Notes: generated by a model from the letters alone, not told the origin. Positions 2 to 37,284 are shown, counted from the first letter of the stretch. The stretch is 64,000 nucleotides of DNA from Marinicella sp. (GCA_965230295.1 OZ246001.1:2784001-2848000), one strand, 5' to 3'. Numbers and translations are program-made.

Positions 2-2557
2 TTTTGCTTATTCTTAGCTGGCACGGGTCAGGTGCACAGCGCTGACGATCATCAACACCACAACGCCATGCGTGCTTTGATTGATGATGAAGACATCACC
101 CATACAGCTGTTGCCAGTGGGTCTTGGTTTGATACCAATACGTGGTCAGGAGGTGTCATTCCGGATGCTGGCGCTTGGGTGTTGATTCCTGCGGGTATCG
201 ATGTGCAATATGACCAGATCAGTGCCGTGCCTTATACTGCAGTGAGGGTCGATGGTGGTTTGTCATTTTCAACCACCCAATCCAGTCAAATGATTGTGGA
301 TACTTTGTTGGTGGAGGCTTCAGGGTGGTTGTCGATAGGAACGGTAAACAATCCGGTTCAGCCAGACGTTTCGGTGTCGATTCAATTCAGTGATGCGGGT
401 GATCTGGATGTGGTTAAAGACCCCAGTTTAATGGGCAGGGGGTTGTTGGCCAGCGGTCCTGCTCAAATGCATGGTTCAATCAAAACAACCCACCTTAAAG
501 TGTCTGTTGACCCGATGGCAGGTCAGAATCAAATTCAACTGGCCTCTCCTCCAGTTAATTGGTCTGTGGGAGACACCTTGGTTGTGGCAGGCACAAAGTA
601 CTCAGGTTGGAAGTGGGATAACAGCATCCAGGCAGTCAGATACCATGGAACCCAAGATGAGGTGGTCACCATCAGTGCCATCAATGGCAGCACCATTACC
701 TTAGATCAGGATTTGATTTATGATCATTTTACCCCGCGGGCAGACCTAAAAACTTCAGTGGCCAACATGACTCGCAACATCACCATAGGCACACAAAATC
801 CGGCTGCCACAGCAACCCATAGACGAGGCCATGTGATGTTCATGCAACAAGCCCCAGTGGATGTGAGGTATGTTGCTTTTTGGCAATTGGGCAGAACGGA
901 TAAATCCTTCTTAACCCTAGAAGCAGCTGATTTTGACGTGATCACACCCACCAGCAATGTGCGTGGGCGCTATGCATTTCATTTACACAGAAAGGGCATA
1001 GCCGATGTTAAAAGCCCGGCCATTGCGATTGGTAATGCGGTGTTTGGTTCACCAGGCTGGGGTTATGTGCATCATGACAGTAATGCCATTTTTCATAACA
1101 ACGTGTCCTATGATACTTTTGGTGCTGGGTTCGTGGCCGAAACGGGCAATGAAATTGGTACTTGGACCAACAATCTGGCGATCAAAGCTGAGGGAAACAG
1201 TGCATTCAACCCTAAAAATGGCAATGACAGGGAGTTGTTTGATATCGGTCGTACTGGTGATGGATTCTGGTTTCAAGGGCGCATGGTCAGAAGCGTCAAT
1301 AACATTGCAGCCAGTGTCAATCATGGCTTTGTTTATTTGCACAGAGGCAGTGGCATGTTGTCATTTCCAGGATCAGTTTTTATGTTGCCAGAGGCCTTGC
1401 GCCGAGGTGCCAATTCCAGTGTTGATGATGCGCCGGTGTTGTCATTCGCCGGCAATGAAAGCTTTGCGTCAACAGTCGGGCTGTATGTGGTCAAGGCCAA
1501 CCCCAATCAGCAGCATGATGTACACAGTCATTTCAAGAACTTCAAGGCTTGGGAGGTGCGAGCAGGTTCAGCGATGGAGTACACGGCACATTATTTATTA
1601 GAAGACTTTGACATCATTGGTAAAACCCCTGAAGCTTTCAGTACGGCTGCTTTTGGAATTGAGTTTGGTACCAACACCAGTGACATGGTGATTAATGGTG
1701 TCCACATTCAAGACATGCCTGTGGGGGTGATTCTCAGTAAAGATTATACGGGTACGCCGCCACCTCCCGAAGTCAACCAGTACGTGGTGATTGATGCGAC
1801 CTATGATCAGGTGCCATTAGAGCTGGAATTTTATGATCCAGCCATTGATCAAGTCCTGACTGCGGCTGACTTGGTACCAGGACAATTTGATGTTGATATC
1901 AATGGCGGGATTTATGAATACCTGTCGCCGGCGACATCCGCTGGTTCAGGCGTTTTCTGGTCAGGGACCAAAACTGACCAAATCGGTGGTACACCAGTTC
2001 CTGCCGGAACGGATGAAATTGGTGTGCCCTCGTATGACATGATTCCCATCACTGAAGAAGATGGGTATTTGCGAACTGCGGGTGGAACGCCGTATGTGGT
2101 CATTGAAGAGTTTTTTACTGAAAGGGCAACAGGTACCATTCACAAGCTGGGTTTAAAAACCTTACTGGGCCCGAATGTGGACGCTGCCTTGGGCAATCAG
2201 TTCACCGCCTGGCGAGATGCATTTCAGGCAGGCATCATCGATTTAAGCAGCAGCGCACCCACACCAAATGATGATTTTGGCACGGCATCCACAGCGCGAC
2301 CTTTGTTGTTGGATTTGTTGCAAAATGACACGGATCCTGACGCAGATGTATTGTCGGTAGATGGCATCATTCAGCCACAACATGGCCGAGTCTATGACAA
2401 CCAGGATGGGACGGTAACATACCTTTCAGACTATGATTATGTGGGTGTTGACCAATTCAGTTATTGGGCCACAGACCGGCATGGCAATTTCTCACCGGCC
2501 AAGGTGAACATCAATGTGCTGAATGATTTGATTTATGCCCATGATTTCAATCAGTGA
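2..2557 (+). CDS. Secreted G8-domain / parallel beta-helix protein (TMEM2/fibrocystin-like) with C-terminal cadherin-like Ig domain and DLIYAHDF tail; 5' end lies upstream of the window
   Basis: The frame is open from base 2 (FCLFLAGTGQVHSA, end of a signal peptide). G8 signature SGSWFDTNTWSGGVIP...VDGGLSF...GWLSIGT. Also GRYAFHLH, beta-helix-type repeats, and a C-terminal PNDD...LLQNDTDPDADVL...DGTVTY Ig-like domain. Confidence 0.75.
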   Translation, partial: FCLFLAGTGQVHSADDHQHHNAMRALIDDEDITHTAVASGSWFDTNTWSGGVIPDAGAWVLIPAGIDVQYDQISAVPYTAVRVDGGLSFSTTQSSQMIVDTLLVEASGWLSIGTVNNPVQPDVSVSIQFSDAGDLDVVKDPSLMGRGLLASGPAQMHGSIKTTHLKVSVDPMAGQNQIQLASPPVNWSVGDTLVVAGTKYSGWKWDNSIQAVRYHGTQDEVVTISAINGSTITLDQDLIYDHFTPRADLKTSVANMTRNITIGTQNPAATATHRRGHVMFMQQAPVDVRYVAFWQLGRTDKSFLTLEAADFDVITPTSNVRGRYAFHLHRKGIADVKSPAIAIGNAVFGSPGWGYVHHDSNAIFHNNVSYDTFGAGFVAETGNEIGTWTNNLAIKAEGNSAFNPKNGNDRELFDIGRTGDGFWFQGRMVRSVNNIAASVNHGFVYLHRGSGMLSFPGSVFMLPEALRRGANSSVDDAPVLSFAGNESFASTVGLYVVKANPNQQHDVHSHFKNFKAWEVRAGSAMEYTAHYLLEDFDIIGKTPEAFSTAAFGIEFGTNTSDMVINGVHIQDMPVGVILSKDYTGTPPPPEVNQYVVIDATYDQVPLELEFYDPAIDQVLTAADLVPGQFDVDINGGIYEYLSPATSAGSGVFWSGTKTDQIGGTPVPAGTDEIGVPSYDMIPITEEDGYLRTAGGTPYVVIEEFFTERATGTIHKLGLKTLLGPNVDAALGNQFTAWRDAFQAGIIDLSSSAPTPNDDFGTASTARPLLLDLLQNDTDPDADVLSVDGIIQPQHGRVYDNQDGTVTYLSDYDYVGVDQFSYWATDRHGNFSPAKVNINVLNDLIYAHDFNQ

Positions 2558-2577
2558 TCGGTTTTATGAGGCTTTGA

Positions 2578-4035
2578 TCAATCAAAATTACTGGCGAAAA
2601 TAAGGTCGTTGAGTACGTTGTATTCATAGGCACCAGCGTCACAAGCGCCTTCATTGGGCCTTGGGTTACCTACTTGGTCTCCAGTCACTTGGGTGCCACA
2701 CCCGGCATTGCCAATCATGCTGTCTACATGGTTGTATAAAATGCTGTTTGGTAAAAAAGTATGAACGCGAACACCCGCATTGTTAAGTTCGATCAAAGGA
2801 CTCAATTGAAGATCACCTGTCGCCAACAGATTGTTATTGCCCAGTATATTGCCTGAAAAACTTTCTATCACCGAATTATTAACTATGTTGCTGTTATTTT
2901 GCATCCAAAGCAATGGAGTGAACGCACTGGATTCTATGATGATGTTGCCATTGGGGCCTACCAAATCACTGACGGCTGCCCCTGTGTTGAAAGCAGAGGT
3001 GACATACCTCAAAGTGACATTTTGACCGTTGTTTGAATTGATGTAGATACCACTGCTCTGGCCTTGGGACTGGTTGTTGCTGATGGTGGTGTTTTCTACT
3101 GTGACATCACTGCCCAAACCACCAGAAATGGCCAAGCCACCCCCATTGCTGCCGGCGCTGTTGTGACTGATCTCTGAATTGATCAGGGATAAGCCAGCAT
3201 TGATTACAGACAAACCCCCTCCTGAATCGGCAGAATCGTTGTCGCTGATTCGCATGTTTTCTAACCGGGTATCGGTGGCGCCATCAATCAAAATACCTGC
3301 ACCTGAATCTGCACCTGTCGTTCTGCCTGCCATGATGGTCAAGCCCGACATGAAAAAGCGCTCACTCATACCAGGTATCAATAATACCCTGAAACTGTCA
3401 TTGCCGGACAAAGAGATGGTCCCAGCACCTGGTCCAATCACTGACAGATCAATTGAGGTGACTGACAGTGGCGAAATAAGGGCAATGGTCCCGCTCAAAT
3501 TTCGTTGAAATTTGACCGTGGTAGGTACCAGGTCTGTAACCGCATAGTCAAACGCCTCTCGCAAGGTGCATTCATTGCCATCACATCCATTGTTACTGGC
3601 ATCAGACAAACTGTTTACTTCAATAAAATTCAAACCTACAGTGGCCACAGCTGCTCCAGTGTTGTTGGCGCTGTTTTGCATCACATATTTAAAATCAAAA
3701 ACCGCTGTTGATGTACTGTTGGAAGTGAACAATACATTGTTGTCGTCTCCGGCACCGTTGATGCTGACAGAACCTGTGGCATTTGAATAGCTGTTGCTGG
3801 TACACAATTCATCACTGGTTCCGATGTCACATAAGCCAACAACTTCTTTGAAATTATCGTTGCTGATGCCACTGTCATCATTGCCCAACACATCCAATAC
3901 GGCAGTGCTGCTGTTGATAGCAGCTTCCAAATTGGGGTCATCGCTGGTTAACGGGATGCCACCGGCCCAACCGGTTGTGGCTGATGTGCATGCACAAAAA
4001 ATCAGAGAATTTATCAAGAGTTTGGTCGGCTTCAT
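2578..4035 (-). CDS. Secreted CSLREA-domain / beta-helix / choice-of-anchor Q protein with DLIFASNFD tail
   Basis: Likely start MKPTKLL with signal peptide. CSLREA-type motif VNSLSDA..GCDGNECTLREAF, GGG-containing polymorphic repeats (DSGGGLSV, NGGGLAI), and choice-of-anchor-Q-type end DQVGNPRPNEGACDAGAYE. Confidence 0.75.
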   Translation of the reverse strand: MKPTKLLINSLIFCACTSATTGWAGGIPLTSDDPNLEAAINSSTAVLDVLGNDDSGISNDNFKEVVGLCDIGTSDELCTSNSYSNATGSVSINGAGDDNNVLFTSNSTSTAVFDFKYVMQNSANNTGAAVATVGLNFIEVNSLSDASNNGCDGNECTLREAFDYAVTDLVPTTVKFQRNLSGTIALISPLSVTSIDLSVIGPGAGTISLSGNDSFRVLLIPGMSERFFMSGLTIMAGRTTGADSGAGILIDGATDTRLENMRISDNDSADSGGGLSVINAGLSLINSEISHNSAGSNGGGLAISGGLGSDVTVENTTISNNQSQGQSSGIYINSNNGQNVTLRYVTSAFNTGAAVSDLVGPNGNIIIESSAFTPLLWMQNNSNIVNNSVIESFSGNILGNNNLLATGDLQLSPLIELNNAGVRVHTFLPNSILYNHVDSMIGNAGCGTQVTGDQVGNPRPNEGACDAGAYEYNVLNDLIFASNFD

Positions 4036-4323
4036 AACAATTGTGATGGCGAAAAAAAGCAAAGATTCTAACTGATTAATCTGGCCAAGTATACTGGCTT
4101 GTCTTTGATGTGTGTGGTGTGTCACGTATTAGATCGTGACTTGTGAGCTATTCAAATTCCGCGACAGGCCTTTTATGATGCTTGAGATATTAATGCTTTA
4201 TTACCATATGGTGCAATTCGTCCAACACCTTGATGATAGAGAGCCACAATGACCAAGCCTTGCTCAGCATCAGATGAAAAATGATGGCTGTTATATTTGG
4301 CTTTAACGAACCACAGTTTGACC

Positions 4324-5940
4324 ATGAAATTTAAACCCTACACACTGACCCTACTGGCAATCATTGCTACATTATTCCTACCAAAACAAGCGCAATCTGA
4401 TACTGCAAAACGATTTGAGGCGCACATGGACTTCCTCGCCTCTGATTTACTACGTGGTCGCGATACCGGAAGTGTTGGTCATGAAGTGGCGGCACAATAC
4501 ATCGCCACTGAATTCGCCAAGATGGGTATCGTCCCTGCTGGTGATGATGGTTACATGCAAAGGATAGAGTTTAAATCTGCCTATTTAGACCAGGATTCGC
4601 CTGAATTCAGCGTGAAAAAAGGTGATGAAGTGTTGTCCTTTGAGTTTTTGGATGAGTTTTCGGTTGGCGCCAACGTCAATCGATTGCGGTCAGAAGTTGA
4701 AGGTGAATTGGTTTTTGTCGGCTTTGGTATAGATGCGCCTTTCCTTAACTATACAGACTTTGATCAGGTGGATTTAAAAGGAAAAATCGCTGTGGTTTTG
4801 GGTGGTAAGCCAATTCATTTTCCGAGTGAGGAAGGTGCTCACTATTCAAGAAAATCAACTGAAGCACTGGTCAAGAGAGGCGCCATAGGGGTGATATCAG
4901 TATGGACCCCCATTGTTGAAAAAGTTTTTGCTTTCTCAAAAACCAAAGAATACATCAATATGCCTCGCATCAGATGGGTGGATAAAACAGGTGCAGTGCA
5001 GAATGGCTATCCTGAAATCCTGGCTTCTGCTTCATTAAGTATGGAAGCGGGTAAAAAATTGTTTACGCAGGCTGGCATGGATTTAGAAGCCTTGTATGAA
5101 CAAATCGAAAACGGAGACCAGTTGGTTGGTCAGGACATGGGATTAACAGCACACATCAGTTACCGGTCGACCCATTCCAGTGTCAACAGCCCCAATGTCA
5201 TTGGCATTTTAGAAGGGACTGATCCAGAATTAAAAGATGAATATGTGTTACTCAGTGCCCACACCGATCACATTGGCGTGTCCGAACACATTGAGTTGGG
5301 TGACAAAATCAACAACGGCGCCATGGACAATGCGGCGGGTGTATCCACGTTGTTGGAAATGGCTCACCAGATCACCCAACTGGGTGAGCGGCCTAAGCGT
5401 TCCATTTTATTTGCCATGGTGACTGCCGAAGAGAAAGGTTTGTTGGGTTCTGATTATTTTGCCAACAACCCCACAGTTCCCATTGACAGTATTGTCGCCA
5501 ATGTGAATTTGGACATGCCGGTTTTGACCAATGCCTTTGATCAGTTGATCGGTTTTGGTGCACAGCACAGCAGCCTTTGGGGCGTGATTGAAAATGCAGT
5601 GGGCAAAAACGGTATGCACTTAATTCCTGATCCCATGCCCGAACAGAATATTTTTGTTCGCAGTGACCAATACAGTTTTGTGAAAAAAGGCATACCAGCG
5701 GTGTTTTTGGTGACTGCCGACAAAGTGGGAATGAAATTTGAAGAACATGAAATTTCCAGCCAGGAATTCATTGTTAAGCATTACCATAAACCTTCTGATC
5801 AATTGGATTTGCCGATCAATTATGATGTGGCTGCAAAATTTGTGGCCATCAATCGAGCCATTGCGATGGAAGTGGCCAATACCCAAGAGCGCCCGAAGTG
5901 GAATGAAGGCAGTTTCTTTGAAACCATGACCGAAGAGTGA
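4324..5940 (+). CDS. M28 family zinc aminopeptidase with PA domain, secreted
   Basis: Signal peptide. Motifs LASDLLRGRDTG, SAHTDHIG, GAMDNAAG, AEEKGLLGS, NLDM, RSDQYSF, HYHKPSD. PA insert VFVGFGI...DLKGKIAVV. Confidence 0.9.
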   Translation: MKFKPYTLTLLAIIATLFLPKQAQSDTAKRFEAHMDFLASDLLRGRDTGSVGHEVAAQYIATEFAKMGIVPAGDDGYMQRIEFKSAYLDQDSPEFSVKKGDEVLSFEFLDEFSVGANVNRLRSEVEGELVFVGFGIDAPFLNYTDFDQVDLKGKIAVVLGGKPIHFPSEEGAHYSRKSTEALVKRGAIGVISVWTPIVEKVFAFSKTKEYINMPRIRWVDKTGAVQNGYPEILASASLSMEAGKKLFTQAGMDLEALYEQIENGDQLVGQDMGLTAHISYRSTHSSVNSPNVIGILEGTDPELKDEYVLLSAHTDHIGVSEHIELGDKINNGAMDNAAGVSTLLEMAHQITQLGERPKRSILFAMVTAEEKGLLGSDYFANNPTVPIDSIVANVNLDMPVLTNAFDQLIGFGAQHSSLWGVIENAVGKNGMHLIPDPMPEQNIFVRSDQYSFVKKGIPAVFLVTADKVGMKFEEHEISSQEFIVKHYHKPSDQLDLPINYDVAAKFVAINRAIAMEVANTQERPKWNEGSFFETMTEE

Positions 5941-5953
5941 TTAAACGAACACT

Positions 5954-6574
5954 TCAGGAGTTATTCTCATTTTTTTGGTTTCTTAGTGTGGCAGCACCTG
6001 TTGCAATGAAACGCAGTTGAGTGATGGCCCTCCGTTCGAGCGCCGCCCTTTGGGTGGGTTTAGCGGCTATGGTTTCTGCACCGGCATTGAATATAACGGC
6101 CACCATGGCTTCGGCTTGATTATAGGCCGAATCTTGATCGAATCCGGTGTTTTGGATGTAGTCAGTCAACTCCACCACAAAGTATTGAATTTCTCTTGCC
6201 ACGGCTACGCGTAAAGCCCTGGTGGTGCCTGAGCGTTCATGAAACAGGATTCTGAATATATTCGGATTGGCTTGGGTAAACTCCATGAATGTTTTCACTG
6301 ATGTGGCGATGACACTGCCTTTTTTCTTCAGCCTTTGTCTGCCTTTTCGCATCACCTGGCGCAATGCAAGTCCGGATTCATCCACTAATGTCAATCCCAG
6401 CTCTTCCATGTCTTTAAAATGTCGGTAAAAAGAAGTGGGCGCAATACCCGCTTCACGAGCGACTTCCCGCAAGCTGAGGCTGGCAAAACTTTTACTTTCG
6501 CTCAATTGACCAATCGCTGCATCGATGATAGCTCGGCGGGTGCGTTCTTTTTGTTGTGAGCGGCTGGTAGTCAA
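5954..6574 (-). CDS. fabR: TetR-family transcriptional repressor FabR
   Basis: [14 protein letters not shown]...[25 protein letters not shown]...[10 protein letters not shown]...ERSGT...AVAREIQYF closely follows enterobacterial FabR. TTG start. Confidence 0.88.
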
Positions 6575-7021
6575 TGGCAGGCTGAGGTTTAAAAATAGCT
6601 AGGTTATCAATTCGATCGAATGTAAGCAAGTCCAAAAGTTGTTGAACCGCATTGATTCAGAGACTTCAGGCCTTTGAATTTGTGAAACTGTTAACAATAA
6701 TGCAACATTTTAGCTGCCAGAATAACAATGGATTTGTACCACTAGGTGCATGTCTGGGGATTTTATCTTTGGTGGGTGCAGGCACAGATCGTTAAAGAGA
6801 GCAATGCTTATTGACATTATAAATAATAAAAACGCATTCAATGGCATTGTGTAAATTGGTTAAAATAAATAAATAATCAATGGAGTGAAGCAGTTACCCA
6901 CGCTTCTCGATGCTGACAACATCTCTGCAGATAGGCAATATGAATTCATTGCTCAGGTATTTGCGTCCAAAGAATGGACTGTGCATTTGTTTTGACTTTC
7001 AACTTAAAGAGGAAGTACAAA

Positions 7022-8257
7022 ATGAAGAATATTAAAAAAATGATCACCTTTGGCTTATTGGCTGGAGGATTGATTGCAACAGCGCAGGCTCAAGTAGACC
7101 TGTTTTATCCGGAAACCAAAACTGTTTCCGGGTTGAAGTCGACATCGACGGTGATTCAGGCCATGTCCAAAAATGACAGTGTCAAATACATCGAACCCAT
7201 CGGCTTGAACACAGCGGCATTACAACCCAGCAACAAGTCTTTCAACTTAAATTTCGCCAAAGACTTACAGTTTAAAACCACCCAGAGCAAGACGTATGCC
7301 ATCGATGATGAGTCCTTTGCATGGATTGGTGAAATTGATTTGGGGTTACAAAAAGTCAGTAAACCGATAGATGATCCGAATGCCATCAATCCCAACCAAG
7401 CTGTTTTTATGGTCAACGGCGAACGTGTTTTTGGGCAAATTATCTTGGATGATTTGGTTTATGAAATCCGCACCATGGAAAATGGTGGTGGTTATTTACT
7501 CATGAAACGTGATTTCTCAGTACTTGGTAATAGAGATGATACACCGGAAAATGATTTTACTCATGATCTCAGTGTAAGGGTTGGTGCCAAGGCTGCTTCC
7601 AATGTGGTTGATGTGATTCAACTGATCACTGATCAAGCCATCAATGACGCTGGTGGTGTTTCATCTGCTGTTGATGCCATGCGATTTTTTATCACTCAGT
7701 CAAACCAGGCATACAGTAACAATAATTTAGATTTGGAAATGCGCAATGCGGGGTTGTACCGGGCTGGGTCTGAGTTGAATACCAGTTCCAGTAACATGTT
7801 GTCACGTTTGCGCAGAACCAATGATGGATATTTAGATGATGTGCCTGGTAACTTAAGGAATCAAACCAATGCTGATTTGGTGGTGTTGGTCACGACTTCA
7901 TTGAGAAATCAAGGGCTGTGCGGACAGGCAGACGGGATTGGTGTCGGTCAAAGCCGGGCTTTTTTCGTCATTGACCATGACTGCACCAACTACACATTTG
8001 TGCATGAAGCAGGTCATTTATTTGGTGCCCGTCATGACAACGACCCAACCGGAACACCTTATAGTTTTGGTCGTGGATTTGTCAGTGCGCCAGGTAACTT
8101 TCGTACCATCATGGCAGTCAGTTCCAATCCTCAGCCCAGAATTGCTGGCTTCTCCAATCCAAATCAGACTTATCGAGGACGGGCGATTGGTACATCAAGC
8201 CGCAACAACACCAGGGTCCACCAATTGCGAGCATCATTTGTGGCAGGTTTTAGATAA
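7022..8257 (+). CDS. Secreted reprolysin-like (M12B) zinc metalloprotease with prodomain
   Basis: Signal peptide MKNIKKMITFGLLAGGLIATAQA, metzincin motif HEAGHLFGARH, Met-turn TIMA, and AGAGGA RBS upstream of 7022. Confidence 0.85.
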   Translation: MKNIKKMITFGLLAGGLIATAQAQVDLFYPETKTVSGLKSTSTVIQAMSKNDSVKYIEPIGLNTAALQPSNKSFNLNFAKDLQFKTTQSKTYAIDDESFAWIGEIDLGLQKVSKPIDDPNAINPNQAVFMVNGERVFGQIILDDLVYEIRTMENGGGYLLMKRDFSVLGNRDDTPENDFTHDLSVRVGAKAASNVVDVIQLITDQAINDAGGVSSAVDAMRFFITQSNQAYSNNNLDLEMRNAGLYRAGSELNTSSSNMLSRLRRTNDGYLDDVPGNLRNQTNADLVVLVTTSLRNQGLCGQADGIGVGQSRAFFVIDHDCTNYTFVHEAGHLFGARHDNDPTGTPYSFGRGFVSAPGNFRTIMAVSSNPQPRIAGFSNPNQTYRGRAIGTSSRNNTRVHQLRASFVAGFR

Positions 8258-27806: not shown

Positions 27807-27827
27807 CGGCTTTCTCTGACGCAGTCA

Positions 27828-28658: not shown

Positions 28659-29399
28659 TCAGTGACTGCTTGAGCTACCTGCTTTGAACTTTTCCATTTG
28701 TTCTTTGATGCCTTCTACTGGGTAGTTCTCACCCGTTGAATAAGCAGCAATTCGACTGAGGTGCGTATAGGGTAAACCGGTTTCTTCATGCCAATTGTTG
28801 AATGCCAGTTGTACTTGAGTTAAATCGCGTTTTGATGTGGGGTGGTCATTGGTTTCGTAACCCGCTTGTTTAACGGCTTGGATGGTGTCATGGGTGGTGG
28901 TGAAACAGTCTTTGCCCACATACCTGAGGAACCAAAAACCGGTATTGCCACCCAGTCTAGATCCATGTTTTTTTAAGTAGGCCATCAATCCAATTTGGTC
29001 TGAGGTCGGCCAATCTGCAATGAATCGGGCGAAACTGTCGTGTTCGTCTGCTGTGTAATTGACAAAATTGGCATTGTGCATCATGGCTTTTATTTTGGCC
29101 CAATTGCGCACCACACGTGTGTCTTGCACATAGGCCTCCCATTCTTCGGGAGGTTTGAATGCCAAACGCTTCACATCAAAACCATGAAAGGCTTCTTCAA
29201 ACTGAGGCCACTTGTTTTCGATCACTGTCCAGTTAAACCCTGCTTGATTGATGGCTTTACACATCATTGCCAGGAACCGGTCATCACCCTTTTGTGCCAA
29301 CTGTTCAGGGCTCAAAACTTTGGGTAACAACGATTTAAGTTTTTTCTCACCGCCTTTTCGTTCGGCAGCCCTGGCATAAATGGTATCGAATTTTTTCAT
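28659..29399 (-). CDS. DNA-3-methyladenine glycosylase I family protein
   Basis: DDRFLA.M...QAGFNWTVIENKWPQFEEAFHGFD...VRNWAKIKA...NA...LKKHGSRLGG.TG..FLR..GKD. Confidence 0.85.
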   Translation of the reverse strand: MKKFDTIYARAAERKGGEKKLKSLLPKVLSPEQLAQKGDDRFLAMMCKAINQAGFNWTVIENKWPQFEEAFHGFDVKRLAFKPPEEWEAYVQDTRVVRNWAKIKAMMHNANFVNYTADEHDSFARFIADWPTSDQIGLMAYLKKHGSRLGGNTGFWFLRYVGKDCFTTTHDTIQAVKQAGYETNDHPTSKRDLTQVQLAFNNWHEETGLPYTHLSRIAAYSTGENYPVEGIKEQMEKFKAGSSSSH

Positions 29400-29440
29400 A
29401 TGAGTTTCATAGTGGTTGTAAAGCGGATAATAATGATATT

Positions 29441-29899
29441 ATGACATACAGAGAAAAGTCTAGGGCCGCATTACTTACTTCAGGAGAACAGACATTGAAA
29501 ACTTGGACTGAAAAATTACAGCAAGAAAAACAACCGATCAAGAAACACATTGATAAGTCATTTGCTGGTATGCCAGCAGGCTGCTTGATGTACATTTCAA
29601 CACCTCAGGAAATCAATGATTTTGTCAACAACATTGAATTTGGGAAAGTGGTTACACCGCCCGAAATGCGTGAAGCACTGGCCCAAACCCATGAAGCCGA
29701 ATACACTTGTCCTGTCACCACCGGAATCTTTTTACGCATTGTTGCAGAAGCAGCCTTTGAAGCTTTGAATAACAACCAGAAAATTGACCAAGTCACGCCG
29801 TTTTGGCGAGCTATAGAAGCCGGTTCGCCGTTGGCCAAGAAATTGACCTGTGGCAATCAATTCATTGTCGATTTACAACAGGCAGAAAAAAAGCCTTGA
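29441..29899 (+). CDS. Putative MGMT/alkyltransferase-like DNA-binding protein
   Basis: IEFGKVVT...TCPVTTGIFLRIVAEAA...TPFWRAI resembles the MGMT C-terminal domain, with PFWR in place of PCHR. Confidence 0.55.
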   Translation: MTYREKSRAALLTSGEQTLKTWTEKLQQEKQPIKKHIDKSFAGMPAGCLMYISTPQEINDFVNNIEFGKVVTPPEMREALAQTHEAEYTCPVTTGIFLRIVAEAAFEALNNNQKIDQVTPFWRAIEAGSPLAKKLTCGNQFIVDLQQAEKKP

Positions 29900-29902
29900 T
29901 CA

Positions 29903-30364
29903 TCAGCGATTGAAGAATAATAACAGCATCAAAGTTGTGATCACCAAACCACTGATCCTGATTCGTAACTGCCAAAACCATGACGGGATCAGGCCAGCTT
30001 GGTGAGCATATCGGTCAATCAACAATGCCAAGATAAATGCAAGCAGGATGGTCGATATGCCAATAAAGCTGGCAAATGCAAACAGGCTGAACCACGCCAG
30101 TAAAGCCAAAACATTACTGATGATGAAGTATTGTTTTTCTGTGGCTTGGTTGAGTGAAATTCCCCATTGTATGCCCCCCAAAAAGCCCACGATGACCGCA
30201 CCGTAAGTGTGTGCAACCATATAAGACTTGAATCTGGAAAAGCGCAATTCGGTGTCAAAGAGTGCGTTTAAATCAAAGAAGCCATAGGCGCTTATAGCCA
30301 ATGCATAAATGAAAGGGAGGGTGCCCAGTGTAGCCAGTGCAATGGGTTTGGAAGGGGAATTCAT
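29903..30364 (-). CDS. DUF3429 family membrane protein (paralog 2)
   Basis: LGTLPF, YGAVIVGFLGGIQWG, SNVLALLAW, IDR...PSWFWQLR. Confidence 0.8.
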   Translation of the reverse strand: MNSPSKPIALATLGTLPFIYALAISAYGFFDLNALFDTELRFSRFKSYMVAHTYGAVIVGFLGGIQWGISLNQATEKQYFIISNVLALLAWFSLFAFASFIGISTILLAFILALLIDRYAHQAGLIPSWFWQLRIRISGLVITTLMLLLFFNR

Positions 30365-30558
30365 CAGTCCAATATAAAAGTTTAATTGTCAAAATAACGT
30401 GTAAAGGCAACTTTCTTCATCGTTTAATTTTACTGAAATACAAAAATGTAAATAAAATATATTAATTGATTTGCAATCATGGGTTAAAATGTTGGATAAG
30501 GTTCTATATTGAACCCAATAAAAACGCAACACTAACCAGCTAATCAAAAGGGGGAATT

Positions 30559-33543
30559 ATGAATGCTACAAAGCAATCAATGGGTATGCTGAGTCTGTTG
30601 TTGATCTTTGGCTCAGCCAGTGATACATCAGCACAAGATACGACCGAAAATACAGAAGTCACATCCAGGTACATCGAGGAAAAGTCTCAAAGGGGGTTAA
30701 ATGAAACACTCCATGAAGACAGCCTAGGGGTGGTTAGGCCTGATCTGTACCTGCAGTCTATGAAGGCATTTAAACAGATTCAAATTGGTCCAAGTGCCTA
30801 TTTAGGTACCAATGTGGATTGGCAGCAGATTGGCCCGGCACCTGCAACAGTTAACAGTTATCTTGAAGGGAATGGGCAAATGCCAGGCCCGAATGCCGCG
30901 GCGGTCATTGATATGGTCATTGATCCAAGCGGCGGCACTGATCAAACAGTTTACGCCATAACCAATGATGGTGGTGTTTGGAAAACCACCGATGGCGGAA
31001 TAGTCTGGAGCCCCAAAACTGATCATTTGGGGACCTTGTCCTTTGGCGCCATTGCTTTGGATCCCAATAACCCTCAAATCGTCTATGCCGGTACCGGGAA
31101 TATTTTCAACAATGGGTATTTCAAGGCGATCGGTATTTATGTCTCAACCGATGGAGGAGAAACCTGGAACTTAACGGCTGGCAGTTCAGTATTGAGTGGC
31201 ATCGGTATCAATCGCATCGTTATGCCACAGTCTGGTATCTTGGTTGTGGCAACCAACCAAGGTCTGTTTCGCTCGATCAATTCCGGAGCTTCATTCACGC
31301 GGGTAGAGATTGGTGGACGGACCAATGATTACATTACCGATCTGGATATCCACGAAGGTGGATCTACAATATGGGCTTCAGTCAATGGCCGTGGTATTTA
31401 TGCCTCTACTGATCTTGGCGCTAATTTTGGAACCAATTTATGGAGTGCCGGGAACGGCACAGTCCCAACTGGGTCCTATGGGTTTGTTTCACTGGGGGTC
31501 TCTGTTGATGGGCAAACCATGTACGCCAATGCCGCTTTGTATCCAGGTGTAGGTGTGTACAAGTCCACCAATGGTGGCAGCCACTGGATTGACATCAGTG
31601 CTCAAGCCACAAGAAATGCACCTGGAATCCCGTTTTGGAAACAAGTGAATGCCTGCCAATGTGGCTATGACCAAACCTTGGCAGTGGACCCGGTCGATGC
31701 GAATCGAGTATATATGGGCTTTCAGGACATGTGGTTATCGGAAGATGGTGGTGAGAATTGGAAGGACATTTCCTACAGTTACAACAATGGAATGCCGGAT
31801 AAAGAACAACTTCATGTGGACTTTCATGTCACCGTGTTCAGTCCTGCGCCTCACCGAGGTAGCCCATCCGAACCCACCAGAATGTGGGCGGGGAATGATG
31901 GTGGCATTTGGTCTACCAGTAACGCCGGTGAAAGCTGGACCAATCACAATGCTGATCCTTCCGCAGTACCCAAGTTGAGCTTTGCCACCAACTTGTTCCG
32001 CGGTATTGATACTGGTCGAGGTACAGGAAACAATGTTTACACCTATGGAGGCATGCAAGACACCGGAACGGCTGCTGGTAACTCTACTTTGCAATCTGGT
32101 GGCACATTTCCATGGCGAGAATGGGGTGGTGGAGATGGTGGTCAAGCAGCTGTGAATTGGCAAGATCCTCAGAAAGCTTATGGGATGTGGGGTAACATCA
32201 TCTACACCCATGATGCCGGTGCCAGCTATCATTGGTCAACCGTCCATTGCCCAGATGGGCCTGCGCAAAGTTTTGCAGAACTGGAAACCGGACCTACCAA
32301 TGGATTCGTGTATTTGTCCGGCGCATGTGGAAACATCCCGACTTTGTTTGAAAGCCAGGATGATGGCTTAAATTATTCTGTATACCACCAGTTCAATGGT
32401 GTGAACGGGCAGGTTCGTTCCATAGGCGTGACGCCAGCCAATGCCAATACCATTTATGTGAGTTTATCTGATGGGACTGTGTATCGCTTGAATAAAGCGA
32501 ATGGAGAAGTCAACGCAACAGACATTAACATACCGAACGCCATTGCTGGCCAGGTACCCAAATTAGCCGTTAATCAAGCCAATGCTGACTGGGTACTGGC
32601 TGTCTATGCAGGTTATTCACAGCAGGTTCTTCCATCACGTTCTAAGCATGTGTACTTGTCATGGGATGCAGGTGCCAATTGGCGTGACATCAGCGGCCAG
32701 AACCCAATGGGTTACATACCTGATTTACCGATTTACGCAGGGGTGTTTGATGTCAATTCAGAACCCAATTCAATTTTAGTGGCATCTGACTTTGGTGTGC
32801 TCAGAACCTACGATTTTGGTTTGACCTGGCATGTGGCAGGCCCTGATTTACCCAATGTACATACCAATGACTTGGAAATTGATACATTGGTCTCGCCATC
32901 ATTGGTTAAAGCAGGTACTTACGGTCGCAGCACCTGGTCTGCTGATTTGCCGGTTGGGGATCAAGTCTTTGGCCAACTTTCACCCAAATTTTATCCGGTG
33001 GGGAGCGTAAAATGGGTCAACAACACCAATGAAGATTTGAACATCAGTTGGATTGATCAAGTAGGCCGAGAAAATCCTTATGCCACTATACCAGCAGGCG
33101 CTCCCATCAATACCAATCACATGTATTTCACTGGTGTTTCCGTGGTCCGTGACCAGGCGAAAAATGTGGTTTTACCTTATGTGGTCAATGGCAGCAACGA
33201 CCAAGAAGTGGTCATCAGTCAAGCAGCATTGGACCGGGCCAAGGCCAATGCCCTGACTGGTTTTCCAGGAATGCGTTCGGTTCCCGGCTCGCACCAAGTT
33301 ACTAACTTTCCGGTCAACAACCATTCCAGCCAGACATTGGATGTCAACTGGATCCAACCCGATGGTGAGACCAGGCAGATGATGCAATTGAAAGCCGGCG
33401 GTAAAGCTTCAATAGGTCCGGTGTATTTTGGTGGCACCTTTACATTTACTGATACCAATCGGAAGGTGGTGGGGGTCTTTACAGCATCGGATGCCAGGGG
33501 ACAGTCCATGGACATCAACGATACTTTGATTAACTCTTGGTAG
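30559..33543 (+). CDS. Secreted BNR/Asp-box beta-propeller protein (VPS10/GH74-like) with two C-terminal VHL-beta-like domains
   Basis: Signal peptide. Many Asp boxes (KTTDGGIVW, STDGGETW, STNGGSHW, SEDGGENW, SWDAGANW). C-terminal repeats of the form NxxxxxLxxxWIxxxG. Confidence 0.8.
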   Translation: MNATKQSMGMLSLLLIFGSASDTSAQDTTENTEVTSRYIEEKSQRGLNETLHEDSLGVVRPDLYLQSMKAFKQIQIGPSAYLGTNVDWQQIGPAPATVNSYLEGNGQMPGPNAAAVIDMVIDPSGGTDQTVYAITNDGGVWKTTDGGIVWSPKTDHLGTLSFGAIALDPNNPQIVYAGTGNIFNNGYFKAIGIYVSTDGGETWNLTAGSSVLSGIGINRIVMPQSGILVVATNQGLFRSINSGASFTRVEIGGRTNDYITDLDIHEGGSTIWASVNGRGIYASTDLGANFGTNLWSAGNGTVPTGSYGFVSLGVSVDGQTMYANAALYPGVGVYKSTNGGSHWIDISAQATRNAPGIPFWKQVNACQCGYDQTLAVDPVDANRVYMGFQDMWLSEDGGENWKDISYSYNNGMPDKEQLHVDFHVTVFSPAPHRGSPSEPTRMWAGNDGGIWSTSNAGESWTNHNADPSAVPKLSFATNLFRGIDTGRGTGNNVYTYGGMQDTGTAAGNSTLQSGGTFPWREWGGGDGGQAAVNWQDPQKAYGMWGNIIYTHDAGASYHWSTVHCPDGPAQSFAELETGPTNGFVYLSGACGNIPTLFESQDDGLNYSVYHQFNGVNGQVRSIGVTPANANTIYVSLSDGTVYRLNKANGEVNATDINIPNAIAGQVPKLAVNQANADWVLAVYAGYSQQVLPSRSKHVYLSWDAGANWRDISGQNPMGYIPDLPIYAGVFDVNSEPNSILVASDFGVLRTYDFGLTWHVAGPDLPNVHTNDLEIDTLVSPSLVKAGTYGRSTWSADLPVGDQVFGQLSPKFYPVGSVKWVNNTNEDLNISWIDQVGRENPYATIPAGAPINTNHMYFTGVSVVRDQAKNVVLPYVVNGSNDQEVVISQAALDRAKANALTGFPGMRSVPGSHQVTNFPVNNHSSQTLDVNWIQPDGETRQMMQLKAGGKASIGPVYFGGTFTFTDTNRKVVGVFTASDARGQSMDINDTLINSW

Positions 33544-33619
33544 TCCAAGCGTTGGCTGTGCTCTCGAGATGACTTGAGATCATGTTGGCGCATTCAGGGG
33601 AGGCTTTATTCAGCTTCCC

Positions 33620-35227
33620 CTATTTTTTAGTCATTGTAGATTGCTCGATGGCATGGGCTGCAAAACCTGCGCCGGCTTCAGTGTGCATGTCAAACACGAT
33701 TTTTACACCCGCTTCGTTGAGTTGTGTCATCTCATCCTCAAATTTAGCTGTGGCAGCAATTTTTCCTTTAAAACCAGTTTCTTGAAGCATTTCAACGACC
33801 TCCATGGTGGAACTGAAGTTGGGCAGGGTTAACAGCACCAGTTCGAGCTGGTTGGATTGATTAACCCGATCCCAAAAATCTGGGTCACTGGGATCGCCCA
33901 ATATGACGTTGCGGCTGTCGTTGCATTGGTTGGTCACTGTAGTGGCGTTGATGTCAATGCCTACAACCTTGTTTTTGTGGTTTATATTTAACTGATCATA
34001 AGCACCGGTACCGACCGCACCCATACCGATGACAGCTATTTCGGCATCACCCAAATCAACCAATTGGTCATAGGACAGTCTGTGATCGCTTTGGGTTTTT
34101 TTCAATGTTTTTCGGTGTTGGGCATAAATGTTGTTGGCATGTGCACTGAGGATGGCTGAAATGATGAATGAAAACGCGATGGTCAAGGCCATCACCAGTA
34201 ACCAATCCTGATCAATCCAGTTGTTGGCTACACCGATTGCGATCACTATCAAACCAAATTCACTGTAATTGCTCAAGTTGATGGTTGACAAGAGTGAAGT
34301 TCGGGCCCTGAGGTTGAACTTAACGAATAAGTAATAAAACACACCTCCTTTGAGCACAATTAATGGTGTTAAGGCAGTCGCCATGAAAATGATGTCTGGC
34401 CCTGGTAAACCATTCAGACCCACCGAAAGAAAGAAGCCTAATAAGAACAAGTCTTTAAAGCCCAACATGGTTTTGACCAACTCTTCAGACTTGCGATGAG
34501 ATGCAATCATCACACCCAGTATCAGGGCCCCTAAATCACCTTTAACGCCCACCAATTCAAACACCTCAGCCCCACCCACAGCCAAGAGAAAGCCATACAA
34601 AATCAATAACTCACCGCGGCCCACCCAATCAAACACTTTGAACAAAATCGGTCGCAGTGGGATTAATAGCAACAATGAGAGGGCCCAGACAGAAGGCATT
34701 TTGCCAGTGGATGTGGCCAAAAAGACCACTGCAAAAATATCCTGGATGATCAGGATGCCAATGGCTAAGCGGCCGTGTAAGGAATCCATTTCTCCTTTTT
34801 CTTCCATGGCTTTGACCACAAAGACAGTGCTGGAAAAACTCAAGGCAAAAGCCAATAATGCCGCTTGTTGCAGGGTTATACCTAACAGCAGTGTGGCACC
34901 AGAGGTGGCGGCCAACATGACCAACCCTGTGAACAAAACCACCACCACTGTGGTGTGAAGCAAAGTGACTCCCCAGACTTGTGGTCGGAGGATGTTTTTC
35001 GGGTTTATTTTCAGGCCGATGGTGAACAACAACAAGGTGATGCCCATATCAGCCATCTTGTTTAGCAAATTGCCATCGATGTTACTTTGTGAACTCAGAA
35101 CAAAACCGGCAATCAAAAACCCCACCATCGGTGGCAGCCCCATCCGTTTTGAGATCAAACCTAAAATAAACGCCATGCCTATCCACAGCAGGTCATTCAG
35201 TGCCAAAGCCACCCAAGCGAAATCCAT
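33620..35227 (-). CDS. CPA2 cation:proton antiporter with TrkA-N (KTN) domain
   Basis: GLPPMVGFLIAG, LLLFTIGL, SFSSTVFVVK, GILIIQD, FFLSVGL, SEFGLIV. C-terminal IGMGAVG Rossmann fold. Confidence 0.9.
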   Translation of the reverse strand: MDFAWVALALNDLLWIGMAFILGLISKRMGLPPMVGFLIAGFVLSSQSNIDGNLLNKMADMGITLLLFTIGLKINPKNILRPQVWGVTLLHTTVVVVLFTGLVMLAATSGATLLLGITLQQAALLAFALSFSSTVFVVKAMEEKGEMDSLHGRLAIGILIIQDIFAVVFLATSTGKMPSVWALSLLLLIPLRPILFKVFDWVGRGELLILYGFLLAVGGAEVFELVGVKGDLGALILGVMIASHRKSEELVKTMLGFKDLFLLGFFLSVGLNGLPGPDIIFMATALTPLIVLKGGVFYYLFVKFNLRARTSLLSTINLSNYSEFGLIVIAIGVANNWIDQDWLLVMALTIAFSFIISAILSAHANNIYAQHRKTLKKTQSDHRLSYDQLVDLGDAEIAVIGMGAVGTGAYDQLNINHKNKVVGIDINATTVTNQCNDSRNVILGDPSDPDFWDRVNQSNQLELVLLTLPNFSSTMEVVEMLQETGFKGKIAATAKFEDEMTQLNEAGVKIVFDMHTEAGAGFAAHAIEQSTMTKK

Positions 35228-35367
35228 ACAGTTGATCCATCTGTTAAATCAAAAACAAAAGTGTGCACTGCTCAGCAGATGATTTCAATCTCTAAGTCAT
35301 GAAAAGTTCAGAATTTTAATGATTGTAGGGTGGCATGAATGATTGGTGAGGATGGGCAAGCCATTGA

Positions 35368-37284
35368 CTATCCCTCGAAATCATCTTCATAAATCAAATC
35401 AGCAGGGTTCCACTTGACCAAAGCACGACACAATTGATTTTGTGTATTGGCTTGAAATTCAAATTTGAGCCTGTCGGTTCCAGCACCATCGAAGCTGAGC
35501 TGAAACTGGGCCAAGCCATTCACATCGGTGTTGGTGTTGATCGATGTACCAGCATGGGGTCCTTCGGTAATATTCATGGTAACGGCATGAGCGTCCATTG
35601 GCGCCCCATTCAATTCGTGCAACCACAAGTTGATGGTGGTAGGTTGGGCATCTCCTTCATTGACAAAGCTCATGAAAGTGGTGTGGCAATATCGCCCGAT
35701 ACTGACAGTCTGATTGGCCATGATTGCTGTGCTCAAAGTTTGATTAACTCCGTCAGGCCAGGTAATTTGTATACTTTGGGTTTGGGCTTCAGTGGCCAAT
35801 CCAAAGTGTTGGGTTAACGAGTTGTTCGACAAATAGTTGTTGTCATGGCGCAGTTCTCTGGTTTGGCTCATGCCAAGGGTGTGGACAGTGATTTTTGAGT
35901 TGGTGGCATAGGGGTTACTGCCCGTATCAAACAGTCTGATGGCCAAATGATTGTTGCTGTTGACCAAATTGTTCTGGTACAGTTTATAGCCATCATTATT
36001 TGGCATCACCAAAATATCTAAATCACCATCCAGGTCATAGTCAACGCAGCTGACACCTCGACCTTGTCCTGTGTAGTCCAAACCAAAAGCAGCCGAAGAT
36101 TCAGTAAAAGTGCCATCCCCATTGGCAAGAAACAATCGACTTGGATCCTCATGAAATTCAACACCGATGATTGGCGATGGAAAACCGTTCTCGTGGTAAA
36201 TATCCAGATGCCCGTCATTATTGAAGTCTGCAAAGCAAGATCCCCAGCCCCAATAACCTTCTCGCACGCCTGTTTCATCGGTGGCATCTTCAAATACACC
36301 ATTGCCGGTATTTCGGTAAAAACGATTTCCAGTTACGCCCCAATTGCCTTCTGCAATGCCATCAGGATCCCAAATACTGCTGACGAACCAATCCATGTCT
36401 CCGTCATTGTCATAATCCCCGATGGCAGAACCCATACCGTTTTCATCAGTGATGAATGCCGGTTGAGTTACACTGAATGTGAGCTGGTTATTGAGAATGC
36501 CGTTTGAATATAAAATTCTGGTGGTACCAAAATCAGAAGTCATCAATACATCCAGCCATCCATCGTTGTTGATGTCAGTCACATTTGGGGTAAATGTCCA
36601 TTTATTGAAATTGGCATTTTGAGGAATACCTAAATAGGTTAAAGTCACATCCGTGAATTGACCGTTGCCATCATTCTCCCAAAACAATTGCTTACTGGTG
36701 GTGGCATTGTCAGATGACCAATGGGTCATGAACAAGTCAAGATCACCGTCTTTATCCAAATCAGCCAAGGAGCCACCATAACTGGGCATGCCTGAATAAA
36801 AACCTGAAGTGAGTGTGGCATCTGAGAAAGTTTGATCACCTTGGTTGATGAACAAGCGCGGGCGGTTTTCTAACACATTGATATCAGTACCAACGGGATC
36901 TTTCCAGTGGTTGATAGAAAACACCAACAAATCCAAATCAAAATCACCATCCACATCAGCGAATATGGGCCCTGAGCCTAAGATGTCGTATAAATCAACG
37001 CCAGCGGTCGCCGCCACGTTAATGAAGGTGCCATCGCCATTGTTTTGGTAAAGTGCATTGTGGTTGTTACTGCCACCCAGTAAGTAGAAATCAACATAGC
37101 CATCAAAGTTAAAATCAGCCACCGCACCGCCAGCTGCGATGTCTACTGGCTCTTTGGGTTTTTCTGTGTAATTGGAATGTACCAGATTGATTCCGGCCTG
37201 GGAACTGACTTCATTAAATGTTTGTGCATTGGCAGTCAGACAAAAAAATCCCATGACAAGCAATAACAAATGGTCTGATCTCAT
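35368..37284 (-). CDS. Secreted CRTAC1/ASPIC-UnbV FG-GAP repeat protein with Ig-like domain and DLIYEDDFEG tail
   Basis: Signal peptide from MRSDHLL. FG-GAP repeats (ADFNFDGYVD, ADLDKDGDLD, GDYDNDGDMD, DYDLDGDLD). UnbV domain YLSNNS...HFGL...ITWPDG. Confidence 0.85.
   Translation of the reverse strand: MRSDHLLLLVMGFFCLTANAQTFNEVSSQAGINLVHSNYTEKPKEPVDIAAGGAVADFNFDGYVDFYLLGGSNNHNALYQNNGDGTFINVAATAGVDLYDILGSGPIFADVDGDFDLDLLVFSINHWKDPVGTDINVLENRPRLFINQGDQTFSDATLTSGFYSGMPSYGGSLADLDKDGDLDLFMTHWSSDNATTSKQLFWENDGNGQFTDVTLTYLGIPQNANFNKWTFTPNVTDINNDGWLDVLMTSDFGTTRILYSNGILNNQLTFSVTQPAFITDENGMGSAIGDYDNDGDMDWFVSSIWDPDGIAEGNWGVTGNRFYRNTGNGVFEDATDETGVREGYWGWGSCFADFNNDGHLDIYHENGFPSPIIGVEFHEDPSRLFLANGDGTFTESSAAFGLDYTGQGRGVSCVDYDLDGDLDILVMPNNDGYKLYQNNLVNSNNHLAIRLFDTGSNPYATNSKITVHTLGMSQTRELRHDNNYLSNNSLTQHFGLATEAQTQSIQITWPDGVNQTLSTAIMANQTVSIGRYCHTTFMSFVNEGDAQPTTINLWLHELNGAPMDAHAVTMNITEGPHAGTSINTNTDVNGLAQFQLSFDGAGTDRLKFEFQANTQNQLCRALVKWNPADLIYEDDFEG

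Follow-up and report, generated by a model that had tools for sequence, protein, structure and literature searches.

A short C-terminal tail on exported proteins of Marinicella and its order, and its association with type II secretion

The stretch of DNA analysed here (the window) comprises 64,000 nucleotides of Marinicella sp. (GCA_965230295.1 OZ246001.1:2784001-2848000) and was found to encode three exported proteins of unrelated domain content which end in a common tail of nine residues, referred to here as the GFE tail. The tail marks about 3% of the genes of the window's own genome, appears from sequence and structure models to be an appendage separate from the last folded domain, seems confined to the window's order and, as judged from the genomes sampled, travels across that order with a type II secretion system (T2SS) of the GspC(PDZ)-GspL-GspM type, a link which is new here. 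It is proposed, with a probability of roughly 0.55, that these tails serve the T2SS route as a very short, lineage-specific tag at the C-terminus, by which proteins are sorted or docked. In what follows G000 denotes the window's own genome, P numbers are database proteins, and f and g numbers are family and genus codes of sampled genomes.

Occurrence of the tail in the window and its genome

The three bearers in the window and their tails are located as follows.

2..2557 (+): G8 / beta-helix / cadherin-like immunoglobulin (Ig; Big_9) exported protein, with its 5' end beyond the window start (full gene G000:C1:2783948-2786557)
2525..2554 (+): tail of the G8 protein, DLIYAHDFNQ, the motif and one extra residue (stop codon 2555-2557)
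2578..4035 (-): CSLREA / choice-of-anchor-Q beta-helix exported protein (485 residues in the database copy P0001)
2581..2607 (-): tail of the choice-of-anchor-Q protein, DLIFASNFD, at the exact C-terminus
35368..37284 (-): FG-GAP / UnbV_ASPIC exported protein, its start taken as the Met preceding the hydrophobic N-terminus
35371..35400 (-): tail of the FG-GAP/ASPIC protein, DLIYEDDFEG, the motif and one extra residue

The initial annotation had described the tail on these three proteins, together with Sec-type N-termini and unrelated bodies, and all of this was confirmed by reading the open reading frames (ORFs) and by a Pfam scan. The C-termini are NVLNDLIYAHDFNQ (2513-2554) for the G8 protein, NVLNDLIFASNFD (2581-2619) for the CSLREA/choice-of-anchor-Q protein and ADLIYEDDFEG for the FG-GAP/ASPIC protein. 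The further statement that the tail lies at the extreme C-terminus is true of the choice-of-anchor-Q protein, but the other two have one residue more (Q and G, respectively). All three possess hydrophobic, Sec-like N-termini and their Pfam content is unrelated: G8, CEMIP_beta-hel and Big_9 in the first, no Pfam match and only the NCBIfam model choice_anch_Q in the second, and FG-GAP_3, UnbV_ASPIC and a weak Big_1 (residues 577-641 of 666) in the third.

The genome of the window (G000) is a single contig of 4,008,074 bp with a G+C content of 44%, and the source names of its close homologs point to Marinicella or a near relative. Among its six-frame ORFs of at least 80 residues (n = 7046), a loose form of the motif was found exactly at the C-terminus in 68 and no more than 3 residues from the end in 103. 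In a set of 3375 genes, called greedily and without overlap by a simple script of our own, 99 end in [LIVM][FY]..[DNGS]F[DENQ] followed by 0–3 residues. For the strict motif D.[IVL][FY]..[GDNS]F[DENQ], 90 genes have a copy no more than 7 residues from the C-terminus, 17 an internal copy and 2 an N-terminal copy; when every protein was shuffled 20 times, there were 0–1 at the C-terminus and 1–10 anywhere. A crude script, also our own, assigned a Sec-like N-terminus to 90 of the 99 bearers, compared with 1115 of 2727 other genes of at least 150 residues; six of the nine misses show a Sec-like N-terminus by eye and three look like fragments. The proteome scan suggested in the initial annotation thus gave the C-terminal enrichment and the exported bearers which had been anticipated, and the counts contradict the possibility, also raised there, that the motif is no commoner at C-termini than elsewhere.

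Over the 99 tails, D occurs in 80 at position -2, followed by I in 88, F in 93, a variable residue, D, N or S (52, 23, and 15), G or D (59 and 24), and F. The motif closes with E, D, Q, or N (59, 32, 5, and 3 tails, respectively), and 0, 1, 2, or 3 residues lie beyond it in 68, 17, 9, and 5 tails, respectively. The consensus in this genome is therefore D-h-I-F-x-[DNS]-[GD]-F-[DE] with 0–3 further residues.

Fifty of the 99 bearers (every second one along the genome) were scanned with Pfam. Thirty six of these had matches, spread over about 25 different families, and every domain stops short of the tail. They include peptidases (M12B and M28, two of each, S8, M14, and M64), other enzymes (endonuclease I, arylsulfotransferase, a glucose/sorbosone dehydrogenase-like protein, and DUF1501) and proteins which are not enzymes (nine with FG-GAP, three with DUF285, and others with cadherin-like/Big_9, Calx-beta, DUF11, beta-helix, CBM96, and Spondin_N). 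This cargo is an exoenzyme and adhesin-like mix of the kind which other bacteria export by T2SS or by the type IX secretion system (T9SS).

The limits of the domains, the series of orthologs and two structure models agree in placing the tail outside the last fold. In the window part of the G8 protein Big_9 ends, as a complete domain, at residue 828 of 841; choice_anch_Q ends at residue 503 of 515 of the long ORF, and the last 30 residues of the three window bearers, searched at E up to 10, gave no match on the tail. Among 64 homologs of the choice-of-anchor-Q protein (E up to 1e-5) the domain ends in CD[AI]GA[YF]E, after which five stop, four enter a T9SS domain, several have Lys-rich tails and one has a transmembrane/Arg anchor. 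A GFE-type tail is carried within 2–8 residues by the 23 Marinicella-type orthologs and by four others, namely P0039 (named Wenzhouxiangella), P0040, P0062, and P0024 (short extension). For the G8 protein the tail was found on 103 of the 120 orthologs listed (of 148); the remaining 17, which include Cellvibrionaceae- and Arenicella-named proteins and one partial sequence, end right after the last Ig strand. A sub-dialect of the tail, DDLI[FY]x[NH]DF[ASNT][EQ], in which the final acid is shifted by one residue, was observed in the Marinicella-type G8 orthologs P0122-P0147. AlphaFold2 models built with alignments had a mean pLDDT (predicted local distance difference test) of 84.1 for the choice-of-anchor-Q protein and 89.8 for the G8 protein (858 residues). 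In the former, residues 476-485 fall below 50; in the latter, the last strand spans residues 837-847 and the last block is coil with a mean of 47.

The tail is thus predicted to be an appendage, and the alternative named in the initial annotation, that it is the last strand of a folded Ig domain, is contradicted by all three lines of evidence. The view expressed there that the tail matches no known sorting signal also holds, as no Pfam or NCBIfam model covers it, and selection on the peptide, which had been suggested, is supported; the tail occupies a site where relatives in other lineages carry sorting signals or nothing. Literature searches with motif strings yielded no relevant paper, and searches of titles and abstract openings on choice-of-anchor domains, sorting and ultrashort signals yielded none naming the tail.

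At codon level, the NVLNDLI shared by the two adjacent window genes is encoded by AAT GTG CTG AAT GAT TTG ATT in one and AAC GTA CTC AAC GAC CTT ATT in the other, so that six of seven codons differ, all synonymously, as had been reported. These genes are convergent, with stop codons 20 bases apart, and their shared NVLNDLI[FY]A (2513-2539 on the plus strand and 2593-2619 on the minus strand) exceeds the general motif in length. Three further window proteins have Sec-like starts and no tail: an M28-like peptidase (4297-5940, +), a metalloprotease with an HExxH motif (6974-8257, +), and a repeat protein of 994 residues (30559-33543, +). The tag therefore marks a subset of the exported proteins.

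Distribution across the order and the type II secretion system

Genomes were searched at DNA level with two patterns, each with a control. Pattern 1 is the back-translated I-F-x-[DN]-[GD]-F-[DE]-stop, with the reversed pattern as control, and pattern 2 is F-x-D-[R/S]-F-E, for lineage variants. Such patterns recover some of the tails only (in G000, pattern 1 finds 40 out of about 99) and the counts are to be read as indices. Pattern 1 gave 40 matches in G000, 9–51 in each of the other 23 members of the genus and 60 in a sister genus, with 0–1 for the reversed control. When 185,579 species genomes were scanned, the matches listed (80 of at least 120) were mostly from Marinicella, Marinicellaceae, Dokdonella, Rudaea, Tahibacter, Rhodanobacteraceae and 'Lysobacterales', and also included metagenome-assembled genomes labeled Alcanivoracaceae and a few singletons. 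The statement in the initial annotation that 'IFxxGFE' tails occur in related lineages was correct. In 250 other genomes from across the class, none had more than one pattern-1 match (nine had one; the control had one match in three genomes), and a looser pattern gave none clearly above control in the same genomes, compared with 57 vs. 6 in G000. This sample includes G248 (flagged unpublished) and G349 (flagged limited); both are at background and the result is independent of them. As far as these genomes indicate, the tail does not occur outside the window's order.

Within the order, 121 genomes with a completeness of at least 90% were sampled. Pattern 1 was found in 13/14 genomes of f1, 7/7 of f3, 14/14 of f4, 2/2 of f5, 10/10 of f9, 14/14 of f11, and 5/14 of f12. 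It was found in 0/15 of f2 and 0/2 of f6, and gave just 1–2 matches in 5/14 genomes each of f7 and f8. Orthologs of a tail-bearing M14 peptidase end in LIFKHGFE in G100 and in LFEDRFEQ in one f7 genome, where a neighboring ORF ends in VFEDRFELLP; a match in a second f7 genome ends in IFDDRFEEPAG. Pattern 2 gave 12–83 matches in all nine genomes of the f7 genus g8 (control 0–3), 9–39 in 8/10 genomes of f9 (the remaining two had 4 and 5), as many as 21 in f4, and 7–8 in f6 (control 0), where the form is F-[AS]-D-S-F-E. When pattern-2 matches were read in frame, those no more than 2 residues from the stop numbered 6/7 in G029, 9/9 in G040, 5/7 in G075 (a sixth lay 8 residues away), 3/5 in G090, and 0/4 in G130.

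On account of the variants in G100, f7, f6, and f9 the family motif was widened at position 5, and the tail family is best described from the sequences as h-F-x-[DNSH]-[GDSR]-F-[DE] with 0–3 (rarely more) residues following. Position 5 is lineage-dependent: the window's family has Gly or Asp there, f6 and some of f4 have Ser, and the f7 genus g8 and f9 have Arg (dialect loci L233, L234, and L239-L268, from genomes G029, G040, G075, and G090). With pattern 1 alone, f6, f7, and G100 seemed to have a T2SS and no tails, which proved to be an artefact of that pattern; the group with a T2SS but no tails is thereby reduced to f2, G100, and part of f7. G100 (2.2 Mb, of the same family as the window; locus L232) has T2SS markers, two genes for extracytoplasmic function (ECF) sigma factors and no match to either pattern; its M14 peptidase ortholog nonetheless ends in NDLIFKHGFE.

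In G000 the genes gspC-D-E-F lie at G000:C1:654370-659829, and those for GspL and GspM at about 2630226-2631742; the GspC protein bears a C-terminal PDZ domain. Sec export and a T2SS in the same genome, as expected of T2SS substrates, are thus both found (the former from the Sec-like N-termini). Homologs of GspC were found in 14/14 genomes of f1, 7/7 of f3, 14/14 of f4, 2/2 of f5, 2/2 of f6, 14/14 of f7, 9/10 of f9, and 14/14 of f11, in exactly 5/14 of f12, as two weak matches in the 15 genomes of f2, and in 0/14 of f8 (a PDZ-only match was set aside). The distribution of GspL (PF05134) and GspM (PF04612) agrees with that of GspC.

A tail score was defined as the pattern-1 matches plus the pattern-2 matches above control. 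At a score of at least 5, 74 of 77 genomes hold at least two of GspC, GspL, and GspM, the exceptions being G045 (GspC only) and two f8 genomes; at a score of 0–1, 19 of 27 hold at most one marker. The correspondence is closest in f12, where all three markers are held by five genomes (G035, G055, G071, G087, and G109), the very five which have tails, with 5, 4, 13, 20, and 2 pattern-1 matches, respectively, and the other nine have none. Within a single genus of this family, G109 has both machine and tails and G094 has neither. This is an association: proteins with the tail go with the machine, and it does not state that the machine reads the tail.

Proposed route, search for a reader and rival explanations

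If the tails are a tag of the T2SS route, the bearers would cross the inner membrane by Sec, as their N-termini look Sec-like, and would fold in the periplasm with the tail free and flexible past the last domain, as the domain limits, the ortholog series and the two models suggest. They would then leave the periplasm by the T2SS of the GspC(PDZ) type, in keeping with the co-distribution and with the exoenzyme and adhesin cargo, and the tail would be read as a short linear motif by a putative reader. The point of reading can be placed only tentatively. Docking or retention at the cell surface after export is slightly favored, though still doubtful, because of the precedent of GlyGly-CTERM and MYXO-CTERM proteins (discussed below) and because protease activity in Wenzhouxiangella is cell-bound. 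In strain AB-CW3 this activity is reported to be cell-associated, with none detectable in the supernatant; in the passages concerned, the authors invoke T2SS and assume that the protease is anchored to the outer membrane by unknown means (PMC7691419). Wenzhouxiangella-named proteins bear the R-variant of the tail (P0039, P0163). Somewhat less probable as the reading point is the machine itself, choosing its cargo with, for instance, a GspC PDZ clamp; this is favored by the presence of the PDZ domain and by the requirement for the EpsC PDZ of Vibrio cholerae for one cargo only, and disfavored by the acidic last residue, by the 1–3 extra residues in 31/99 bearers and by the internal and N-terminal copies of the motif.

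Four further periplasmic PDZ proteins of G000 were considered as specific readers and rejected. An Asp-protease with a PDZ domain (L127) occurs in only 3 of 120 other genomes and in none of f1. A PDZ protein with a hydrolase domain (L125) occurs in one of five tail-rich genomes, and an M61 protein with PDZ (L124) in two of five. A protein with two PDZ domains (L126) is widespread, including in the tail-poor f2 and f8, and is missing from the tail-bearing f5. Co-folding of the GspC PDZ (residues 180-288) with residues 455-485 of the choice-of-anchor-Q protein gave scores of 0.01 and 0.00 vs. a mark of 0.32 and, being without controls, speaks neither for nor against binding. The GspC PDZ domains of 21 genomes with G-type tails and 17 others were compared at the loop before strand B: the form G-[KRQ]-h-x-G-h-R-h is kept in 21/21 of the former and in f6, is 4–6 residues shorter in 14/14 genomes of f7 (R-type or few tails), and is altered in G100. 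This pattern is suggestive, but it is fully confounded with phylogeny and proves nothing. The initial annotation had proposed a dedicated sorting system; the part concerning a separate tag stands, and the co-distribution with T2SS narrows the route, but no dedicated partner emerged among the candidates examined.

A number of observations weigh against a tag of the T2SS route. No reader was found among five PDZ proteins or the ECF/kinase modules of G000. The G8 orthologs from outside the order, among those listed, are tail-less, and a G8-type protein therefore does not need the tail in general. One to three residues follow the motif in 31 of the 99 bearers, and about ten good copies of the motif in G000 are internal or N-terminal. 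The internal copies and those following a signal peptide imply that the motif can work away from the C-terminus; together with the trailing residues, they imply that a free carboxylate right after the motif is not required, which sits badly with a canonical PDZ or TPR-clamp reading. Eight genomes with a tail score of 0–1 possess the machine (six of f2, G100, and G124), although G100 has at least one tail missed by the pattern. Conversely f8, where the machine was not found (GspC 0/14, GspL 1/14, GspM 0/14), keeps a few real tails on large exported proteins, 1–2 per genome in 5/14, with tail scores of 5 in G031 and 7 in G060. The genome counts ignore kinship, related genomes not being independent, and a large secretome and a T2SS could travel together for ecological reasons.

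Among the copies away from the C-terminus, that in a protein of 2340 residues (G000:C1:1551084-1558106, minus strand) is perfect, SIDLIFATGFEAP, and lies at residue 38, just past the signal peptide. Further good mid-protein copies, at 1225667, 1827755, and 3566529, lie ahead of Pro/Gly/Ala-rich linkers. Three large proteins (G000:C1:1421560-1424421, 1502239-1506363, and 3172793-3178705) share a C-terminal domain of about 90 residues which opens with DLIFxxGF[EN] and closes with the calcium-site-like D-x-D-G-D-G..N..D; in these a larger module begins with the tag.

Four other explanations were weighed, of which the most credible, although unlikely, is that the tail is a physical anchor without a protein reader, an acidic-aromatic peptide which sticks to the outer leaflet or to lipopolysaccharide, its aromatic residues inserting and divalent cations bridging its acids. 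The link with T2SS would then arise only because the cargo needs that route. The composition of the tail, with two Phe and three to four Asp or Glu, fits such an anchor, as do the cell-bound protease activity of Wenzhouxiangella AB-CW3 reported in PMC7691419, the failure to find a specific reader and the capacity of copies to work at C-terminal, internal, and N-terminal positions. However, I-F-x-x-x-F retains its exact spacing and residues between families in which the bodies are 45–80% identical, which argues for a shaped binding site over bulk chemistry, and Arg at position 5 in lineage variants weakens a model of pure cation bridging. Less credible still is a handle for periplasmic quality control, in which the tail carries no address and, like the YxF ends of outer membrane proteins (OMPs), guards against or is sensed by proteases such as Prc/Tsp, DegP/DegQ, or a DegS-like protein. 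G000 encodes Prc, two DegP/Q-like proteins, a DegS-like protein, a tricorn-like protease, and RseP, each of which contains PDZ. Tail-specific proteases prefer non-polar C-terminal ends, of which the acidic end of the tail is the opposite. Such envelope proteases are near-universal, though, whereas the tail is limited to one order; it is missing from relatives which lack T2SS and keep such proteases (these were not surveyed across the sample), and homologs in other lineages lack it. For protection, moreover, a plain acidic end would be enough, leaving the conserved I-F...F core unexplained.

That the tail is a signaling ligand, a neighbor's tail being read by the periplasmic TPR part of membrane Ser/Thr kinases which control ECF (PF07638) sigma factors, is improbable and is kept as a minor rival. 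At 120 tail loci in other genomes the commonest non-tail neighbors were a Pkinase-TPR protein (21 ORFs at 18 loci) and the PF07638 sigma factor (10 loci). In G000, a tail gene lies no more than two genes away from 6 of the 10 ECF-kinase pairs, the mean expected at random being 1.57 (P about 0.002); the six pairs lie at G000:C1:1157202-1162668, 1520012-1525769, 2288610-2293972, 2520369-2526443, 3153229-3160447, and 3240874-3250166. The kinases linked to ECF genes have one transmembrane helix, so that their TPR part is predicted to be periplasmic, and TPR clamps of eukaryotes bind acidic C-termini. Yet about 99 tails face only 10–15 kinases, and the exported proteins next to the other four pairs carry no tail, so that the link may amount to no more than ECF modules adjoining exported proteins. 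The counts of PF07638 rise with tail number but are still 1–8 in tail-poor genomes; present in 105 of 120 other genomes, tail-poor ones included, this sigma factor was rejected as a specific co-distributed marker. The pattern reads as ECF modules regulating neighboring exported proteins. Least probable by far is that the tail has no function of its own and either is a structural end-piece of the last domain or arose by recent copying of DNA or by gene conversion among paralogs. The longer identical stretch in the two convergent window genes would agree with copying, but six of its seven compared codons differ synonymously. The tail occurs, moreover, on some 25 unrelated Pfam families whose domain models end before it, forms a low-confidence coil in both AlphaFold models, is absent from orthologs which end at the last strand, and is kept across at least nine families of the order.

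Significance and comparison with known systems

To our knowledge, the way in which T2SS chooses its folded cargo has been an open question for decades, and we know of no linear signal for it. Here a tag of nine residues occupies the slot that other phyla fill with sorting signals, and does so almost only where one type of T2SS is present; it may show how T2SS cargo is sorted. With the tag, the exoproteome or surface proteome could be read from sequence for the order in its entirety, which includes the proteolytic, cell-preying Wenzhouxiangella and the marine Marinicella. A bolder and rather doubtful form of the proposal is that the GFE tail is the first short, linear and transplantable signal of the T2SS pathway, deciding both export and surface retention of a folded periplasmic protein, with the machine, for instance its GspC PDZ clamp, or a coupled partner as reader. 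If so, sequence would serve to predict cargo, reporters could be directed as desired, and a portable tag for surface display or secretion could follow.

The closest precedents are GlyGly-CTERM with rhombosortase (VesB of V. cholerae) and MYXO-CTERM with myxosortase (TraA of Myxococcus xanthus), in which a tag is likewise carried by many unrelated Sec-exported proteins. It is reported that proteins of both kinds depend on T2SS for their arrival at the surface and that TraA is released when it lacks its tag (PMC11980579). Those tags are tripartite, with a motif, a transmembrane helix, and an Arg cluster; an intramembrane protease cleaves them and a lipid is attached, whereas the GFE tail has nine residues, contains neither a hydrophobic segment nor a basic cluster, and ends the protein. 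Tripartite signals have been described as having a hydrophobic segment of transmembrane length after the motif (bioRxiv 10.1101/2023.06.07.544157). The C-terminal motif on many unrelated proteins (99/3375) and the signal peptides on most bearers are shared features; however, just 0–3 residues follow the motif in 99/99, leaving no room for a helix, and in place of a basic end cluster the last motif residue is E, D, Q, or N in all 99. Without a membrane-spanning segment the tail could presumably not reach an intramembrane active site.

The type A/B C-terminal domain of T9SS (PF18962; Bacteroidota) resembles the GFE tail in marking about 100 exoenzymes and adhesin-like proteins per genome, in sending cargo by one outer-membrane route with surface attachment, as is proposed here, and in filling the same slot after choice-of-anchor-Q/beta-helix bodies (P0029, P0043, P0048, and P0049). 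It differs in being a folded domain of about 70–100 residues and not an unstructured nonapeptide, and the T9SS sorting domain (PF18962 / TIGR04183) had no match in the 53 tail proteins scanned (3 + 50). The type I secretion systems handle proteins without an N-terminal signal peptide, which leave the cell directly from the cytoplasm, whereas the bearers are Sec-like.

PDZ domains read C-terminal peptides, and the EpsC/GspC selector offers a parallel in that the GspC of G000 has a C-terminal PDZ domain and this type is present in every tail-rich family. The GFE tail ends in an acidic or polar residue, whereas a canonical PDZ ligand has a hydrophobic last residue with a free carboxylate. In V. 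cholerae the EpsC PDZ is reported to be needed for one cargo only, the PDZ-dependent information residing in the Ig fold of VesB (PMC12369372) and not in a linear tail. The OMP beta-signal, read by BamA/Omp85 and DegS, likewise stands at the very C-terminus of Sec-exported proteins and is short and rich in aromatic residues. It has an aromatic last residue and is found on beta-barrels, whereas the GFE tail ends in Asp or Glu in 91/99 and its bodies are soluble enzymes and repeat proteins. Reading of the C-terminal OMP motif as a peptide has been described (PMC1634882).

A catalogued entry of similar form is NCBIfam NF050076 (sort_motif_YLP), a putative C-terminal sorting motif of 11 positions without a transmembrane part. 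Its core is YLP, compared with IFxDGFE; neither it nor any other NCBIfam model matched the three window tails at E up to 10, and a search of G000 gave three weak matches of 13.5–15.5 bits in frames of 22–65 residues. The tail is thus of the C-terminal sorting-tag-like kind, without a match to the catalogued signals, and there is a real chance that it represents the first linear signal of the T2SS route.

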